Part shown: positions 5,105 through 39,840 of the stretch, piece by piece | Layout of the letters: each line of letters begins with the position of its first letter | How positions within the stretch are numbered: the stretch's first letter is position 1 | Sequence record: PP359570 | Length of the DNA: 64,000 nucleotides | From: Escherichia phage ALITA | Strand: one strand, 5' to 3' | Notes under the pieces: generated by a model | What the model was told of the DNA's origin: nothing | The model's input: the letters and a program-made list of their open reading frames with translations, nothing else | The model's database searches: none | Program-made: the position numbers and the translations under genes

Positions 5105-5305
5105 AAATTATTTAAAGTTTTTACAGATTTTCGGGTACAAATTTTGAAAATGAAAAGTTCAAGTTTGGTCAAAATTATTTAAAGTTTTTGTACGTATTTC
5201 TGTCCAGATTTTGAAAATGAAAACTTCAATTTTTTAAAAATTCCCCAGTTTATTTAAAGTTTTTTTGCCTTTTTCCGTAGAAAAATCAAAAATGAAAAGT
5301 TCAAT
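5105..5305. repeat. three imperfect direct repeats (~67-75 bp iterons)
   Basis: Blocks TTATTTAAAGTTTTT (5108, 5175, 5249) and GAAAATGAAAAGTTCAA (5144, 5210, 5287) recur in the same order. Confidence 0.6.
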
Positions 5306-5327
5306 TTCGTGTTTTTATAGGTGTGTT

Positions 5328-5439
5328 AATGAGAATCATTTTCGTTTGTAAATGAGAATCATTATCATTTAACTATGTAAGTGATAATCATTCTCAGTAA
5401 GAGAATGAGAATCATTAGCAAATGAGAATTTTTCTCATT
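5328..5439. promoter_or_regulatory. array of five Fur-box-like operators (AATGAGAATCATT)
   Basis: 13-mers at 5328, 5351, 5380, 5404 and the perfect palindrome AATGAGAA-TTT-TTCTCATT at 5421-5439; the 19-mer ending at 5364 matches GATAATGATAATCATTATC at 16/19. Confidence 0.5.
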
Positions 5440-5674
5440 TACAGAATAACGCGCAGGGGCGGTGTTTGTCTCGCGCTCCCGTGTCCCCTCGCCATACAAT
5501 AAGAATAGCATAACCAATAACAAAAGCAAGCGATTATTTTTATCTTTACATTTCTTTACAAATTTATTTTAGACGAGCTACCGGCGATCAACCTTCCAAC
5601 CAGTGCCCCCTGGTATGTTAGCCCCGCCTTTACGCCGTGGGGTGGCGTTTCCTCTTCTGTATGTAAAACAGTAT

Positions 5675-7147: not shown

Positions 7148-7200
7148 TTGACATTGCACTAAAACCTGATAAGCTATCTTAAAGCGGGAATAGTTCCCGC
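7148..7200 (+). promoter_or_regulatory. promoter/hairpin cassette C3 (serves 7220)
   Basis: TTGACA-N16-TAAGCT, hairpin GCGGGAA-TAG-TTCCCGC. Confidence 0.65.
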
Positions 7201-7219
7201 TTACATAGGATAAAACTTT

Positions 7220-9388: not shown

Positions 9389-9448
9389 TTGACAACGTTT
9401 AAAATTAGTGTAAGATGTATCACATAGGGCGGGAAATGGTTTCCCGCC
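9389..9448 (+). promoter_or_regulatory. promoter/hairpin cassette C7 (serves 9471)
   Basis: TTGACA-N16-TAAGAT, cacATAG, GGCGGGAAA-TGG-TTTCCCGCC, leader aaatcaaagaaagg. Confidence 0.7.
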
Positions 9449-10269: not shown

Positions 10270-10328
10270 TTGACAGTAGCATCATTTATAAGTAAAGTAA
10301 CAACAACGGCGGGAAATGGTTTCCCGCC
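10270..10328 (+). promoter_or_regulatory. promoter/hairpin cassette C10 (serves 10349)
   Basis: TTGACA-N17-TAAAGT, GGCGGGAAA-TGG-TTTCCCGCC, leader atcaataaagagataagatc. Confidence 0.7.
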
Positions 10329-12574: not shown

Positions 12575-12636
12575 TTGACAGCACACCTGATAAGGAGTAT
12601 ATTGTATCTCATAGAGCGGGGAAATGGTTTCCCCGC
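12575..12636 (+). promoter_or_regulatory. promoter/hairpin cassette C15 (serves 12657)
   Basis: TTGACA-N17-TATATT, tcATAG, GCGGGGAAA-TGG-TTTCCCCGC, leader ttaacagaagagataagat. Confidence 0.7.
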
Positions 12637-14313: not shown

Positions 14314-14372
14314 TTGACACCGATCCCCAATATGGTATGATTTACCACGTAGGCGGGAAATGGTTTCCCGCC
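14314..14372 (+). promoter_or_regulatory. promoter/hairpin cassette C19 (serves 14396)
   Basis: TTGACA-N16-TATGAT (TGn extended), cacGTAG, GGCGGGAAA-TGG-TTTCCCGCC. Confidence 0.7.
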
Positions 14373-15170: not shown

Positions 15171-15231
15171 TTGACACAGGATCACCCTTATACTAATATG
15201 TATCCCGTAGGGCGGGAAATGGTTTCCCGCT
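15171..15231 (+). promoter_or_regulatory. promoter/hairpin cassette C20 (serves 15250)
   Basis: TTGACA-N17-TAATAT, ccGTAG, GGCGGGAAA-TGG-TTTCCCGC. Confidence 0.7.
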
Positions 15232-15558: not shown

Positions 15559-15942
15559 ATGAGCAATATCATCAACCTGGCAGCGACTGTAAACGGTAAA
15601 GACTTTAACGGCGCTGTAGACCGTGATCCTATGTGGTGCTTATCAGTGTTTAAAGGCGATCTGGTTGAAGTTAGAACAACCGAAGGTTATAGCGACGATT
15701 ATAAATGCGAGATTCATTTACACAACTGGTACACGGGTAAAACTTATGCGCTGAATCACGCGTTTATCGGGAAAATTGAATATCGCGAGATGATCGACGA
15801 AGAAACGGGGCAAGATTTTAGCGAGCATGTTTATATTCGTTCAGAAACATTAGCCGAACGTTTGATCGAGAAAATGAAAGCAAAAAATAAAATTAATTTA
15901 TCTCATTGGATTGATATAACAAACGATCCGGCTTATAAGTAA
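15559..15942 (+). CDS. hypothetical protein
   Basis: 127-aa ORF with GAGGA RBS. Confidence 0.7.
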   Translation: MSNIINLAATVNGKDFNGAVDRDPMWCLSVFKGDLVEVRTTEGYSDDYKCEIHLHNWYTGKTYALNHAFIGKIEYREMIDEETGQDFSEHVYIRSETLAERLIEKMKAKNKINLSHWIDITNDPAYK

Positions 15943-15958
15943 ATAACATTTCACACCA

Positions 15959-15985
15959 GGGCGCACAAAGCGCCCTTTCTTTTTA
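15959..15985 (+). terminator. intrinsic terminator GGGCGC-ACAAA-GCGCCC + T-run (end of island)
   Basis: Perfect stem plus tttcttttt. Confidence 0.7.
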
Positions 15986-16189
15986 CCTAAATAAAGATGA
16001 TAGCTTTTACCTATCAAAAACGTTCACCGAAAAAAGTGAATAGATCGCGGTATCGAACTAATCAAGCAACAGATGAACAACCATACCATGAAGGTCATAA
16101 GGCGCTTACAACGTGTTTTAGACCGCTTATTTTTAATTTCTTCATGTAACTATCTGGCAAAAACAGCCTTTTTCTTGTCTTTCCTCTTA

Positions 16190-16260
16190 AATGATAATCA
16201 TTCTTATTTATAGCTGATTATTTATGCAATTTATTGCATAATGCAATAATGATAATCATT
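16190..16260. promoter_or_regulatory. two exact Fur-core 13-mers AATGATAATCATT flanking a triple ATGCAAT/ATTGCAT palindrome
   Basis: 13-mers at 16190-16202 and 16248-16260; ATGCAAT-TT-ATTGCAT-A-ATGCAAT at 16224-16247. Confidence 0.5.
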
Positions 16261-16640
16261 CCTAACTTAAGACCATCTAACCTATAAAATAATAAGTTAT
16301 CTAACTAAATTAAAACTAATTATCTCACTTTTATTTATAACTTACTGTTACTATCTCATTGATAACCTTATATTAAACAACAATAACTAATATAAATCAT
16401 TACTAAGCTAAATATAATCTATCTAACCCTTAAAACTACAATTATAATCTATCTAATTGTTGCACAAAGTAACTATTAAATTGTTAGTAACATTACTAAA
16501 TAATTCACATCCTATCTATTTATGATCTAATCTTTACCTTTCTATCTATTACCTAAATAACCATTTCATACAGTAATTATTCCATATGGTAATCATTTCA
16601 TACAATAATTATAACAAGAAATATAATTCGCAAGCGTATC

Positions 16641-16816
16641 ATTAGCAGCCTATGCCGGACACATAGGCGGCTAATAATAACGCAACTACACACCCCACAT
16701 AATAACCATCAACGATGGTTATTATTTGTGTTTATGTAGCTTGCAACAATTGCAAGCGCAACAATATACATGGTATATTGTATTCCCTTACATTGTTGCG
16801 GTGCGTTATTATTAGC
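16641..16816. repeat. nested perfect palindromes / cruciform-capable element
   Basis: Outer arms GCTAATAATAACGCA (16670) / TGCGTTATTATTAGC (16802) enclose hairpins at 16699-16725 (12 bp), 16739-16757 (8 bp) and 16762-16780 (8 bp); a further hairpin lies at 16642-16673. Confidence 0.6.
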
Positions 16817-17119
16817 TAATGTTTAGAACATTGGCTATAATATAAGCTGCATATAATAAACTATGCAATAATAAACATGGTGAATAATGACACCGATGAT
16901 CATAATGCGCCACCCTCCAGGGGGCGCTATGTAAACACAAAGAAATCTTTCTTGTCAAGAAAATATTGCCACTATTGCGCAAAATTATTTTTATCTGAAT
17001 AGATGATTTTTCATACTATTGCCCCTATAACATACCTCATTTGTTGAGCCTACTTTCTTAAAAGCGCAATAAATCAGAATTATCTTGATTTTTAGGGCGT
17101 TTTATAGTACAGAAAGTAT

Positions 17120-17138
17120 GCAAATGATAATCATTATC
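17120..17138. promoter_or_regulatory. Fur-box-like site (17/19 to GATAATGATAATCATTATC)
   Basis: gcaAATGATAATCATTATC read directly from the sequence. Confidence 0.5.
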
Positions 17139-17305
17139 AGCTATCTTCCACGGGTAGCACTATTTCACGCCAGATCATTTCATTTGGCAAGGTGTATATA
17201 GATGTTTAGACTTGCCAAGCCATTGATTTACTTAGAATTTATCTGTTTTGTTGTGAGTAATACCTTTCTTACTCAGAAAATAATCAAAAGTCTTATAAGT
17301 CATTG

Positions 17306-17336
17306 AATGATAATACAAATGATAATTATTCTCATT
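17306..17336. promoter_or_regulatory. tandem Fur-hexamer-like repeats
   Basis: AATGATAATacaAATGATAATTATTCTCATT. Confidence 0.4.
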
Positions 17337-17695
17337 GATATTTGAGGGGGACGGTCGGCAGAAATCGGGGGGCGCTGAAAATCGCGTTAAGCACCTCTCG
17401 CAAGCGAGCAGTATTTTGCGGCAAGTTATTGATATTATTGACTTTACGCTTATGAAAAGGGGGTGTGTCGAAATAAATCGGGTATACCGGAAAATTTTTG
17501 TGGCATAGATATTTATTTGTCTATATTATGTACAAAGGGGTGTATTAAAAATAATAGGTATATATAGAATAATTGATAGGGAAATCCTATACTAATCCCT
17601 CCATTAATGATGTTTCTATGTTGCTGTTATTGTAATAGATGAAAAGACGCTGTATGATGTGTGGCATGAAACGTAAACTTATAAAGGAGTCTGAT

Positions 17696-29412: not shown

Positions 29413-29954
29413 TCAATATCCTCTTCGTAATCATCATCCCAAGAAGATGCGTCGTAACGCTCTTCCTCTTCGAAATCCCAATTAATTTCTACTCCAAAAT
29501 CTAAAAACAATTTAACAATGTTTTCTGTAGAGTAGTATTTATCATAAGCGTTAGCTAGTTCCCAATACTTGTCACTCAATTTTTTATATTTAGGATCATT
29601 ATAATCATAATCTACTTTATAACCATAATCATACATCTCTTGTTCAGCTTTAAGCATAGCTTCTGGTGTAAGAAGATTAGGGAACGGACGATTTCTTTCT
29701 TTTAACTTAGAAACAATCCAGTTTGCAACATTTGCCACTTCACCATCTTGATTATCACCTAAACAACTTGCATAATCTCCATCTTCGTAAGTGCCTAAAT
29801 CCCCACAGACCACATGTACAATAGATGAATACGATCCACACGTTTCACAATCTGAAAAAGTGTCTACTGTTGTAATATCAATAGATAAAACTGGTAAAGC
29901 CATAGCTTCTTTCACACAAGCCTCCTCATATAATAACATATCATCAAAACCCAT
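29400..29954 (-). CDS. hypothetical acidic protein, translationally coupled to Sir2
   Basis: GGAGG RBS before ATG 29954 (MGFDDML); 13-nt overlap with the Sir2 start; C-terminus DDDYEEDIECEE. Confidence 0.6.
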   Translation of the reverse strand: MGFDDMLLYEEACVKEAMALPVLSIDITTVDTFSDCETCGSYSSIVHVVCGDLGTYEDGDYASCLGDNQDGEVANVANWIVSKLKERNRPFPNLLTPEAMLKAEQEMYDYGYKVDYDYNDPKYKKLSDKYWELANAYDKYYSTENIVKLFLDFGVEINWDFEEEERYDASSWDDDYEEDIECEE

Positions 29955-35770: not shown

Positions 35771-36433
35771 TTATTTAATATTCAATTTTGCACAAAGACG
35801 TTGTACCGCTTTGGCATCGAACAAACTCCCACGAATAGTTCTCTTTCCTGATTCATTCAGATGTTTTGCAATCGTCATATATGGCGTTTTACAAGCTCTG
35901 TATGCAACTAAAGAATCTTTTAAAGAAAGCGCAAACTCTTTTGAGCGTTTTGCTTCTTCCGTTTTCGTATAATCTGTTCTTTTGTATTTAGGGTTTGCTG
36001 CACCAAGAAGCGTTCCCTTCGCTTTTGCTACTTTAAGGCTCTTCTTAACACGATCAGATATTGCACGAGCCTCTTCTTCTGCCAGAACTGCTAAAATATT
36101 TATTATCATATTTTCAGCGGAGGGCATAGTTGCTATTCGTACATTAATCATCTCTAACAAGGTTGCAACAGAAGCTGTGTTACGTCCAAGACGGTCAACC
36201 TTAGCAACAACAAGTGTAGCACCTGTTTCTTTGCAAAGATTAACAGCTTTTACAAGCTCTCTACGTTGCTTCCAATCGCCTTTACCCGAATAAAACTCTG
36301 CAAAGCTACCTACAATAGTATAATTTTCTTGTGAATCCAGGAAGCGTTGGATATCTGCTTCCTGTGATTCTATACCATACTGGTTGCCTTGTTGTTTCTT
36401 CTTAGAAAGTCGATGATACAGTACAAACTTCAT
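35771..36433 (-). CDS. small serine recombinase (resolvase/invertase type, C-terminal HTH)
   Basis: YHRLSKKKQ catalytic-Ser motif, VAKVDRLGRN, EEEARAISDRVK, C-terminal HTH IAKHLNESGKRTIRG. Confidence 0.85.
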   Translation of the reverse strand: MKFVLYHRLSKKKQQGNQYGIESQEADIQRFLDSQENYTIVGSFAEFYSGKGDWKQRRELVKAVNLCKETGATLVVAKVDRLGRNTASVATLLEMINVRIATMPSAENMIINILAVLAEEEARAISDRVKKSLKVAKAKGTLLGAANPKYKRTDYTKTEEAKRSKEFALSLKDSLVAYRACKTPYMTIAKHLNESGKRTIRGSLFDAKAVQRLCAKLNIK

Positions 36434-39087: not shown

Positions 39088-39840
39088 TTAGTATACTTCC
39101 GTGATGAACTGAGACAAACGGGAACGTTGGTTATCAGCAGTTGTCATTTCAACATAACCAATAAAATCCACAATAGCTTCCCTTTCTCCTTCTTCATTAA
39201 TAGGAACAACACGATCTAACAAATCACCTAACCCGTTAGCTCTTCGTTTAATTGCATATGTTTGATTAACATCGCCCATAATGACAATACGTGTATTAAG
39301 ACCTGCTCGCTCAAGGAGAAGTTTTACTGTATTTGGTGACATAAGTTGAACTTCATCAATAAGAATAATGCTGTTATCCCACGTAGCACCTAGTGCATAG
39401 TTTGGAATATTAAGTTCAATTTTGCCACTTGCAATATCGTTTTCCAATTTATTTGCAGTCATAAACTGTTGGAAAATTCTTTTAGTTGATTCGTAGTGTG
39501 CTGCTAGTTTATCAGTCTTATCTCCAGATAAGAAACCAATTTGATCATCACCTACTTCTGTCGGGTTTTTAAGGAAAATCAACTTTCTGAAGTCACCAGC
39601 TTTAAGCATTTGCAATGCTTTCCATAGTGCTGTTGTCGTTTTTCCTGTTCCTGCTGGGGCATTAACAATGGTTAAATCATTCCAAACCATGCTTCTTACA
39701 ATAGCTTCTTGATTCCCAACAGGGGTAAATTCATCAAGACGGTAATCATCATTTCCTACTGCTTTAGCCGCATAACGACTGGCACGTTTGTCATCATTGG
39801 CTGCTGATTGACGACGAGCCTTTGCGGTTTTATTTCCCAT
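39088..39840 (-). CDS. phoH: PhoH-like ATPase
   Basis: Walker A NAPAGTGKTT, Walker B ILIDEVQ, GDVNQ motif. Confidence 0.85.
   Translation of the reverse strand: MGNKTAKARRQSAANDDKRASRYAAKAVGNDDYRLDEFTPVGNQEAIVRSMVWNDLTIVNAPAGTGKTTTALWKALQMLKAGDFRKLIFLKNPTEVGDDQIGFLSGDKTDKLAAHYESTKRIFQQFMTANKLENDIASGKIELNIPNYALGATWDNSIILIDEVQLMSPNTVKLLLERAGLNTRIVIMGDVNQTYAIKRRANGLGDLLDRVVPINEEGEREAIVDFIGYVEMTTADNQRSRLSQFITEVY

Follow-up and report, generated by a model that had tools for sequence, protein, structure and literature searches.

Escherichia phage ALITA (sequence record PP359570) is a phi92-like E. coli myophage of the genus Justusliebigvirus (Stephanstirmvirinae; genome of around 146 kb), of which a stretch of 64,000 nucleotides, hereafter called the window, was analysed. 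An earlier note, made from the letters alone, had described a nest of palindromes closed by a long-range inverted repeat at positions 16,641 to 16,816. The nest is real, statistically strong and under selection: it forms a fold whose base pairing has been selected for, it is present in one copy per genome, and its position and orientation relative to the direct terminal repeat are fixed in three lineages. Beyond this, we infer that the folded molecule is DNA rather than RNA and that it serves end replication, end processing or packaging; judged from sequence comparisons, a cis-acting element which folds in single-stranded DNA and acts in end replication, concatemer processing or packaging has about an even chance of being the right interpretation.

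Architecture and conservation of the nest

The minimum-energy fold begins with a hairpin, H1, which is followed by a four-way junction, in which the long-range stem P1 closes the helices P2, P3 and P4. The individual elements are:

16642..16674, + strand: H1 hairpin, 13-bp stem with one A·G mismatch, loop CCGGACA, arms TTAGCAGCCTATG / CATAGGCGGCTAA (inverted-repeat search)
16670..16684, + strand: 5' arm of the long-range closing stem P1, GCTAATAATAACGCA (inverted-repeat search)
16686..16739, + strand: P2 extended hairpin, consisting of CTACA/TGTAG, CACA/TGTG and a 12-bp perfect tip hairpin (fold, alignment)
16739..16757, + strand: P3 palindrome GCTTGCAA-CAA-TTGCAAGC, 8-bp stem (hairpin scan, alignment)
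16757..16800, + strand: P4 stem CGCAACAAT/ATTGTTGCG around the tip hairpin ACAATATAC-ATG-GTATATTGT (hairpin scan, fold, alignment)
16802..16816, + strand: 3' arm of P1, TGCGTTATTATTAGC (inverted-repeat search)

The arms of P1, found at the coordinates given in the earlier note, are complementary at 15 of 15 positions and separated by a spacer of 117 nt; the last five nucleotides of H1 overlap the 5' arm, and a 10-bp palindrome, ATTAGCTAAT (16811-16820), follows at the 3' arm. The nest contains three hairpins with perfect stems and 3-nt loops. Two of them were found as previously reported, namely the tip hairpin of P2 (16699-16725), which has a 12-bp stem and the loop AAC and is the longest perfect short-loop hairpin of the window, and P3 with its 8-bp stem and the loop CAA. 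The third one, the tip of P4, is present as well, but comprises 9 bp and spans 16761-16781 instead of 16762-16780; it is an insertion confined to this genus. Similarly, the near-perfect 13-bp hairpin upstream, H1, had been recognized, but its end had been placed one base too early. The proposed extension of the outer stem by GCAAC/GTTGC is not supported: it is not retained in relatives, in which GTTGC (16795-16799) instead pairs with GCAAC (16758-16762) within P4 and forms the fourth helix.

The window contains 41 perfect hairpins (stem of at least 8, loop of at most 8) compared to 12.4 ± 4.4 in dinucleotide shuffles, which is an about threefold excess. In the nest, three such hairpins lie within 83 bp, and three within 100 bp were seen in none of 40 shuffles of the window. 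Shuffling of the local non-coding stretch produced three or more perfect hairpins in 26 of 2000 cases and a 12-bp stem in five of 2000. A perfect 15-nt inverted repeat with a spacer of 20 to 200 nt is found once in the window, and was obtained in 8 of 3000 local and none of 60 window shuffles. For a 201-nt segment, the z-scores of the fold against shuffles are -8.8 for DNA of the + strand, -6.8 for RNA of the + strand and -7.65 for RNA of the - strand. In a GC-corrected sliding scan of the whole 64 kb, the nest is the strongest fold (z = -7.06; runner-up -4.3).

Exactly one copy of the nest is present in each of 132 phage records of the Stephanstirmvirinae, and the same 132 records are retrieved irrespective of which clade's copy is used as the query. 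The copies are 96-98.5% identical within the genus, around 81% in Phapecoctavirus and 74-79% in the Klebsiella and Citrobacter phages of the subfamily. The surrounding 1.15 kb are 93-95% identical to many phi92-like E. coli myophages and have no plasmid matches. No match to the nest was found in 5,426 complete E. coli genomes or in 72,556 plasmids, and an origin as a host-derived repeat or from a plasmid was therefore rejected. A miniature inverted-repeat transposable element or another transposon with terminal inverted repeats was also considered and dismissed: each genome has a single copy at a single locus, the flanks show no duplication, and the arms covary instead of staying constant. A search of the whole window against Rfam returned no matches at gathering thresholds; at E ≤ 10, only chance-level matches appeared, the best of which over the nest reached around 21 bits compared to a cut-off of 170.

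Two observations concern the database records themselves. Several GenBank entries, among them PQ110661, PV682947, PQ360875 and OR515479, place "hypothetical proteins" of 30-100 amino acids over the nest and the repeat arrays; these annotations are wrong, because the indels and compensatory substitutions found there are incompatible with coding. In addition, around 20 records named "Campylobacter phage" are nearly identical to these E. coli phages, and several of them are marked UNVERIFIED or are unannotated.

Covariation was analysed in 23 distinct diverged copies derived from GenBank, IMG/VR and metagenomes, which were aligned with MAFFT. Scans with the invariant P3 core had yielded four loci in IMG/VR and twelve in metagenomes; the metagenome loci L015, L018, L019, L021, L023 and L024 proved to be unrelated chance matches and were discarded. 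The structure predicted by RNAalifold comprises H1, P1, P3 and the P2 tip; 12 of its 38 pairs have changed on both sides, with no one-sided wobble changes. Pairing across the 23 copies amounts to 100% for H1, P1 and P3 and to 97% for the tip of P2. The covariation score is 0.217 compared to 0.062 in column shuffles, none of 500 of which reach the observed value, and it falls to 0.033 or less when the partners are slid by one to three columns. The multi-branched fold of about 175 nt postulated from the ALITA sequence is thus strongly supported, and the covariation places its pairing under selection.

The helices differ in how they have been preserved. The seven central pairs of H1 are always paired in relatives and three of them covary. 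In P1, all 15 pairs are kept in the 23 sequences, including four covarying pairs despite the 117-nt separation: ACGCA/TGCGT is replaced by AGCCA/TGGCT, CCGCA/TGCGG or ACACA/TGTGT, and an A-T to T-A swap is found even within the genus, in phage arall. The tip of P2 has five covarying pairs and a loop of freely varying sequence; in some lineages, the P2 stem has been replaced as a whole (GGAATAATC, GTGACTATT, TTACTATC) with pairing always retained, and in two loci (L013 and L022), an entirely different stem still pairs. The CTACA/TGTAG helix of P2 is invariant in sequence and thus uninformative for covariation. P4 was left out of the pair count, as its MAFFT alignment was too poor, and was judged by eye: it is kept as CGCAACAAT/ATTGTTGCG, CGTAATG/CATTACG or GCGTAAT/ATTGCGC, the form in other genera being shorter (CGTAATG/CATTACG). 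In Klebsiella phage KP2025, an unrelated perfect hairpin, ATGATGTAT-GTG-ATACATCAT, is inserted at the same P4 tip. By contrast, the stem of P3 is invariant in 23 of 23 copies, while its loop varies (CAA, TAA, TTA, TGA, TGC), and several unpaired blocks are conserved, namely AACTACAC, CTTACA and the H1 loop CCGGACA/CGGGAAA. Most helices are therefore selected for pairing, and P3 and the linkers for sequence, because the stems covary while the P3 stem and the unpaired blocks stay fixed.

An invariant stem with a free loop suggests that P3 makes a sequence-specific contact. It is also what would be expected if the palindromes were double-stranded sites for dimeric proteins, such as a res-like site of a serine recombinase or sites for a repressor or the small terminase subunit; in such sites, the 3-bp spacer is free to vary, and no strand would fold. 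Further observations fit such sites: the half-site TYGCAAGCG is present at 16628, 16750 and 17398 and in seven copies in the window compared to 0.59 expected, and GGCAACTAT is found in alternating orientations within the corresponding element of rV5-related phages (see below). However, H1, P1 and P2 vary in sequence and stay complementary, whereas a protein site would keep its sequence; the arms of the P2, P3 and P4 hairpins have no common half-site consensus, and the full P3 palindrome occurs only once in the window. For the nest as a whole, this explanation is very unlikely, although it may hold for P3 alone. As an observation in its own right, the seven TYGCAAGCG copies (7824, 10005 on the - strand, 12407, 15424, 16628, 16750 and 17398) all lie within 7.8-17.4 kb, six of the seven on the + strand, and three of them are positioned around the nest and the right-hand cut of the terminal repeat. 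The motif was rejected as a promoter or operator family, since the four copies outside the terminal region have no common context and at least three are located within open reading frames (ORFs).

The earlier note had mentioned a small serine recombinase, and this gene is genuine:

35771-36433, - strand: resolvase-family serine recombinase of 220 amino acids (Pfam Resolvase PF00239, E = 8e-22)

Its homologues, which are 57-100% identical, are conserved across this subfamily of apparently virulent phages and also occur in some Vibrio and Shewanella phages; circularisation and concatemer resolution are possibilities for its role. Nothing links the recombinase to the nest, however. The gene is located 19 kb away rather than next to the nest as known for serine-resolvase res and invertase sites, the subsites of the nest share no half-site, and Vequintavirus records with an analogous nest gave no match to the recombinase at E ≤ 1e-20. 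Stems that vary and yet stay complementary are the opposite of recombinase half-sites, and a recombinase recognition site is not supported.

The terminal repeat, related lineages and the surrounding region

The nest is located a short distance upstream of the direct terminal repeat of the phage, which is present once in the assembled window:

17047..17389, no strand: direct terminal repeat of 343 bp (annotation of Salmonella phage UAB_1, mapped by alignment)
17042..17049, + strand: left boundary motif TGTTG^AGC, cut between 17046 and 17047 (sequence comparison)
17383..17393, + strand: right boundary motif CGCGTTA^AGCA, cut between 17389 and 17390 (sequence comparison)

The position of the repeat rests on three independent records. 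For phage BME3, a repeat of 342 bp was determined by PhageTerm (PMC12210895); the end of the BME3 record maps to 17388 and that of the PD06-derived record to 17046. The left motif TGTTG^AGC is invariant in six genus-level representatives, and the same position was obtained independently for UAB_1 and for phage Schickermooser, which belongs to a different genus and has a repeat of 328-329 bp (PMC6563267). The repeat of Schickermooser starts at the identical TGTTG^AGC site, 208 bp past its nest. The right boundary is also conserved and resembles the left one (GTTR^AGC). In the window, 230 bp separate the end of the nest from the terminal repeat and 573 bp from the physical right end.

In all 22 loci, the nest lies upstream of the boundary motif at a distance of 168-465 bp, the low value being that to the first and the high value that to the last copy of the motif. 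Overall, the spacing ranges from around 190 to around 465 bp, partly because a unit of 58-81 bp containing TGTTGAGC has been tandemly duplicated in some genomes. Such units, which carry the boundary motif, are present in two to three tandem copies directly left of the repeat (around 17000-17047 of the window) in KP13-26 (L008), FKP3 (L027), nepoznato (L029), WPEC4 (L006), Citrobacter phage Tr1 (L010), KP2025 (L028) and the locus L026; BME3 (L031) has around 45 extra bp just left of its terminal repeat. The sequence directly left of the cut is thus a hot spot of variation, as has been reported for T7-like phages. A mechanism that measures a fixed distance from the nest to the cut is ruled out by the variable spacing.

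A similar design is found at the same place in phages related to rV5. Phage LL12 (Vequintavirus), an rV5-like phage, has a terminal repeat of 459 bp as determined by PhageTerm (PMC6658697). A perfect 18-bp inverted repeat, whose arms are 148 nt apart, starts 212 bp beyond one boundary of this repeat (z = -9.2); inside it lie a second perfect 18-bp repeat and a perfect hairpin, with more hairpins on its flanks. The LL12 element is single-copy and matches 118 records in BLAST searches, all but three of which are records of E. coli or "Campylobacter" phages. In Klebsiella phage KPP-1 (Mydovirus), for which a repeat of 514 bp was described (PMC9862379), a perfect 21-bp outer stem with arms 164 nt apart is located 309 bp beyond the repeat boundary (z = -10.2) and closes a four-way junction with three hairpins, two of them with stems of 9 bp and loops of 3 nt.

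BLAST searches with the phi92-type nest did not detect the elements of LL12 and KPP-1. A covariance model built from the phi92-type alignment matches the rV5-related elements weakly (28, 25 and 18 bits) and in flipped orientation only. In these matches, the succession H1 (loop CGGA), P1, C-rich linker (CACCCC), P2, P3 is retained, and the terminal repeat thereby comes to lie on the same side as in the window. Shared ancestry of the phi92-type and rV5-type elements is likely from these alignments; however, homology as opposed to convergence is unproven, since the reverse strand of the window itself scores as high. More firmly established is that the design recurs at the same place. Altogether, around 250 sequenced rV5-like and phi92-like genomes from two subfamilies have the element in common, in its design and probably also through descent. 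The genome paper of rV5 labels the region just as "non-coding", and no prior description of the element was found in literature searches.

The nest is situated in an AT-rich stretch without genes, the largest gene-free stretch in that part of the genome, which is delimited and structured as follows:

15559-15942, + strand: last right-end gene (Pfam Phage_30_8)
15958..15985, + strand: intrinsic terminator after the last right-end gene, 7-bp GC stem and T run (terminator scan)
16140..16500, no strand: very AT-rich (21-25% GC), with lower DNA stability than anywhere else in the region (sliding scan of fold and GC content)
16558..16653, + strand: six tandem units of around 16 bp, TAAYCATTnCAnAnnn degenerating to TATCATTAGCAG (direct-repeat search)

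In the concatemer, the order is thus right-end genes, terminator, AT-rich repeats, the six units of around 16 bp, H1 and the nest, the 230-bp spacer, the terminal repeat and the left-end genes. According to an alignment of the upstream non-coding region, the terminator at 15958-15985 is kept across genera and marks the start of the gene-free terminal region. The AT-rich stretch contains repeats at 30-bp spacing (AAATATAATCTATCTAA at 16410 and 16440). The last unit of the array forms the 5' base of H1, and in relatives, repeats of the ATTAGC type run on at either side of the nest; in the phages arall and inny, the array is annotated as "repeat_region". ORFs that are annotated as genes in relatives resume past around 17400-17640, and the left-end genes possess several promoter-like sites, which are directed inward.

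A direct-repeat array (16558-16653) adjoining an AT-rich stretch (16140-16500) is the arrangement of iteron-type replication origins, and the nest could be part of such an origin: an initiator would bind the array, the stretch of 21% GC would unwind, and the nest would fold in the exposed strand and signal loading or priming, comparable to the single-strand initiation signals known from plasmids and single-stranded DNA phages. The site beside the terminal repeat would then be incidental, or the region would combine origin and packaging functions as at the right end of T7, where the secondary-origin promoter phiOR is close to the right repeat. The tandem and 30-bp-spaced repeats, the least stable DNA of the region directly upstream, the size of the gene-free stretch and the selection on single-strand folding all agree with this explanation. 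Support by an initiator gene or DnaA boxes was not obtained, however, the skew analysis in the rV5 paper could not tell an origin from transcription switches, and the conserved orientation to the terminal repeat in three lineages is left unexplained. An origin is therefore rather unlikely, although it overlaps heavily with an element for end processing, from which sequence alone cannot separate it.

Alternatively, the nest could be a cluster of terminators or an insulator, which stops polymerases coming from the right-end operon from passing through the concatemer junction into the early genes of the next genome. P2 resembles a terminator on the + strand and is the only helix scoring as one (three GC pairs, TTTGTGTTTAT tail), the record of the Vequintavirus Murica annotates a "terminator" under the equivalent element, and the rV5-like region lies between convergent transcription units. 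However, a canonical terminator is already present after the last gene, 650 bp upstream; the T-rich tail of P2 is not kept in the rV5-type element, and a covarying closing stem with arms 117-164 nt apart, an invariant P3 and repeat arrays are needless for termination. This role is highly improbable.

Further structured sequences were noticed in the window. At 16222-16249, overlapping perfect palindromes, TTATGCAATTTATTGCATAATGCAATAA, adjoin the motif AATGATAATCATTC; aligning the upstream non-coding region shows that both are retained from genus to genus, and they may form an operator or promoter module. A near-identical, perfect hairpin, GGCGGGAAA-TGG-TTTCCCGCC, is found in at least five copies (9428-9448, 10308-10328, 12616-12636, 14352-14372 and 15212-15230), with a variant at 7182-7202. 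The copies fall between the small + strand ORFs of the right-end block and may represent a family of sites for termination, processing or protein binding. Six matches to the Fur-box consensus of E. coli, GATAATGATAATCATTATC, with at most three mismatches are present in the window compared to 0.04 expected, among them those at 5325-5343, 5348-5366, 5401-5419, 17120-17138 and 29594-29612. One match with only two mismatches is located within the terminal repeat, and three are grouped in the segment that ranks second in the window for structure (5281-5460, z = -4.3); a related palindrome, AATGATAA...TTATCATT, is one hairpin of the KPP-1 element. These matches may indicate iron-responsive control or the site of a phage regulator.

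The folding molecule and its proposed role

The earlier note had left open whether the nest acts as a structured RNA, as a cruciform or single-stranded DNA hairpin origin, or as a recognition site of a recombinase or terminase. Among these, the single-stranded hairpin and terminase-related options are the best, because the nest adjoins the terminal repeat; the recombinase and the cruciform are not supported. The classical double-stranded cruciform offers no explanation for covariation between stem arms that are separated by 117-164 nt, and pairing must therefore occur in a single strand.

Several features favour pairing at the level of DNA, although none of them is decisive. In the alignment, 862 of 867 stem cells are Watson-Crick pairs; read as the + strand, no cell is G·T (G·U in RNA), and read as the - strand, five would be. 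In the P4 of the phAPEC8 clade, there is one T·G on the + strand. Wobble pairs are thus nearly absent, with no strand asymmetry, given the five cells on one strand and the single T·G on the other. The stems are perfect, loops of 3 nt are found in three hairpins and in the insertion of KP2025, the outer stems of relatives are perfect duplexes of 18-21 bp, and KP2025 and Justusliebigvirus have each gained unrelated perfect palindromes at the same hairpin tip. The region also appears to lack promoters: a sigma-70 scan of 15900-16749 listed no site on either strand. A sigma-70 site within P3/P4 (TTGCAA-18-TATATT) was rejected, as it depends on the genus-specific insertion and no matching -10 element was seen by eye in other genera. 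The terminator scan found no T run after P1, the outer stem.

The base composition points to the + strand as the folding strand. Unpaired positions of this strand consist of 7% G and 35% C, while G equals C at paired positions, and the flipped elements of LL12 and KPP-1 have the same bias at unpaired positions. The + strand has its 3' end at the adjacent terminus, and it is therefore the lagging-strand template for a fork that moves towards this end.

The most serious competitor is a structured non-coding RNA of around 170-190 nt, which would be encoded on the + strand and made by read-through from the upstream operon or from an unrecognised phage promoter; it could, for example, regulate, serve as a decoy or assist packaging, either in cis or in trans. 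Helices that covary next to unpaired blocks that do not change (AACTACAC, CTTACA, loop CCGGACA) are a hallmark of functional RNA, to which the size and multi-branched design also correspond. The linkers are poor in G and rich in C and A on the strand that is sense to the upstream genes, the fold of the RNA is strong (z = -6.8), and a T-rich tail follows P2 on the + strand. On the other hand, Rfam has no match even at E ≤ 10, the sigma-70 scan is empty, a strong terminator lies around 650 bp upstream and none after P1, and G·U pairs are missing from all 867 stem cells on the + strand. Perfect RNA duplexes of 15-21 bp are expected substrates of RNase III. In addition, the element lies amid direct-repeat arrays, its link to the repeat boundary is seen in three lineages, and no transcriptome study of the region was found in literature searches. 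An RNA is possible but doubtful; if the nest is one, it would define a new, well-supported family of phage non-coding RNAs.

If the nest instead acts as DNA in end processing, it would do so when its stretch is single-stranded. The + strand would be exposed as the lagging-strand template and as a 3' tail after incomplete end replication or resection; the classical model of how concatemers form predicts a 3' tail of this strand. The folded junction, together with the invariant P3 and the linkers, would be read by the replication or terminase machinery of the phage, thereby preparing the concatemer junction for processing, the terminal repeat for copying or the right end for the initiation of packaging. 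More specifically, and only tentatively, the nest may be a strand-specific, single-stranded DNA "end organiser" common to rV5-like and phi92-like myoviruses, in which a four-way junction is recognised by the replisome or terminase through its shape and a few invariant bases and is needed to regenerate the terminal repeat from concatemers or to start packaging. Such an organiser would represent a new class of structured cis-acting DNA in large double-stranded DNA phages, and would be closer to integron attC sites or parvoviral terminal repeats than to known pac or cos sites.

A number of points weigh against a DNA element for end processing. The variable spacing between nest and repeat leaves no room for a simple measuring mechanism, and since the whole subfamily is syntenic, inheritance rather than function could explain why nest and repeat lie close together. 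The upstream genes, too, have the + strand as their sense strand, so that the strand asymmetry fits RNA equally well. The missing G·U pairs are weak evidence, because the stems are AT-rich and many compensatory changes are transversions without a wobble intermediate. The best match across subfamilies, 28 bits, is no higher than that of the window's own reverse strand, the core of the rV5-type element is nearly invariant and provides no covariation test of its own, and the palindrome of T7 is far weaker (z = -1.6), which makes this analogy a loose one.

To our knowledge, ever since the T7 studies of the 1970s to 1990s it has been an open question how two repeats are regenerated from the single one present per concatemer junction, and we know of no cis elements pinned down for this process beyond the loosely defined signals of T7 and T3. 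The nest, in contrast, is sharply defined at around 180 nt, has natural compensatory variants and adjoins the precisely mapped cuts TGTTG^AGC and CGTTA^AGC. These properties make its role directly testable; the phages that carry it grow readily on E. coli and are in wide use for therapy. In practice, the nest is a landmark for orienting and trimming assemblies and a region to be spared in engineering.

Comparison with known systems

The concatemer junctions of T7 and T3 share several features with the region described here. They have short, exact direct terminal repeats with T7-type ends, short repeat arrays flank the repeat, and T7 has an inverted repeat in its unique DNA, a few hundred bp inward of the repeat at the right end; pac signals also belong to this region of T7 and T3. 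The arms of the T7 palindrome (39568-39608) lie around 170-190 bp before the start of the repeat at 39778, compared to 230 bp for the nest. A DNA hairpin intermediate was reported for T7 concatemer processing, according to a passage in PMC4281155 that cites this work. However, T7 has a single imperfect palindrome with 79% complementarity and a z-score of -1.6 in the same scan, whereas the nest is a far more elaborate four-way junction of around 180 nt with perfect stems (z = -7). There is also no sequence similarity, and the hosts of the element are myoviruses of around 146 kb.

In phage N4, terminal inverted repeats near the right end act as DNA hairpins that prime replication, as stated in a passage of PMC3896407. 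Compared by description, N4 resembles the phages analysed here in its direct terminal repeat of around 400-500 bp and its inverted repeats at the right end; however, the N4 repeats are described at the 3' ends themselves, while the nest is located 573 bp from the physical end and outside the repeat.

The geometry of the nest recalls the inverted terminal repeats of adeno-associated virus (AAV) and other parvoviruses. The AAV repeat folds into a T-shaped hairpin (A-B-B'-C-C'-A'), which is read in single-stranded DNA; it is a three-way junction at the very terminus, is present at both ends of a single-stranded DNA genome, and needs the Rep nickase and a terminal resolution site. As in the parvoviruses, a long outer palindrome closes small internal palindromes near the genome end, which also applies to LL12 and KPP-1; unlike the parvoviral repeats, the nest is an internal, single-copy four-way junction of a double-stranded DNA phage. 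Further parallels are the complementary-strand origin of phage G4, the single-strand initiation sites and single-strand origins (ssi/sso) of plasmids and the attC sites of integrons, which are DNA elements of 100-300 nt with one strand selected to fold and which combine covarying stems with few conserved unpaired bases. By description, the nest shares both properties; their replicons, however, pass through a fully single-stranded stage. If the nest was an RNA, it would recall the packaging RNA (pRNA) of phi29, a multi-branched molecule of around 170 nt that is encoded close to the genome end and needed for packaging. The two agree in size, branching and position, but pRNA is a transcript with its own promoter from protein-primed phages without a classical terminase, and for the nest, no promoter was found, no Rfam family matched, and the pairing pattern is DNA-like.

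Phages with short terminal repeats possess terminal hairpin elements, and the nest appears to be a variant of these that has not been described before. By analogy, its nearest precedents are the palindrome and hairpin intermediate of T7 and the terminal inverted repeats of N4, with the parvoviral terminal repeats as a geometric analogy.

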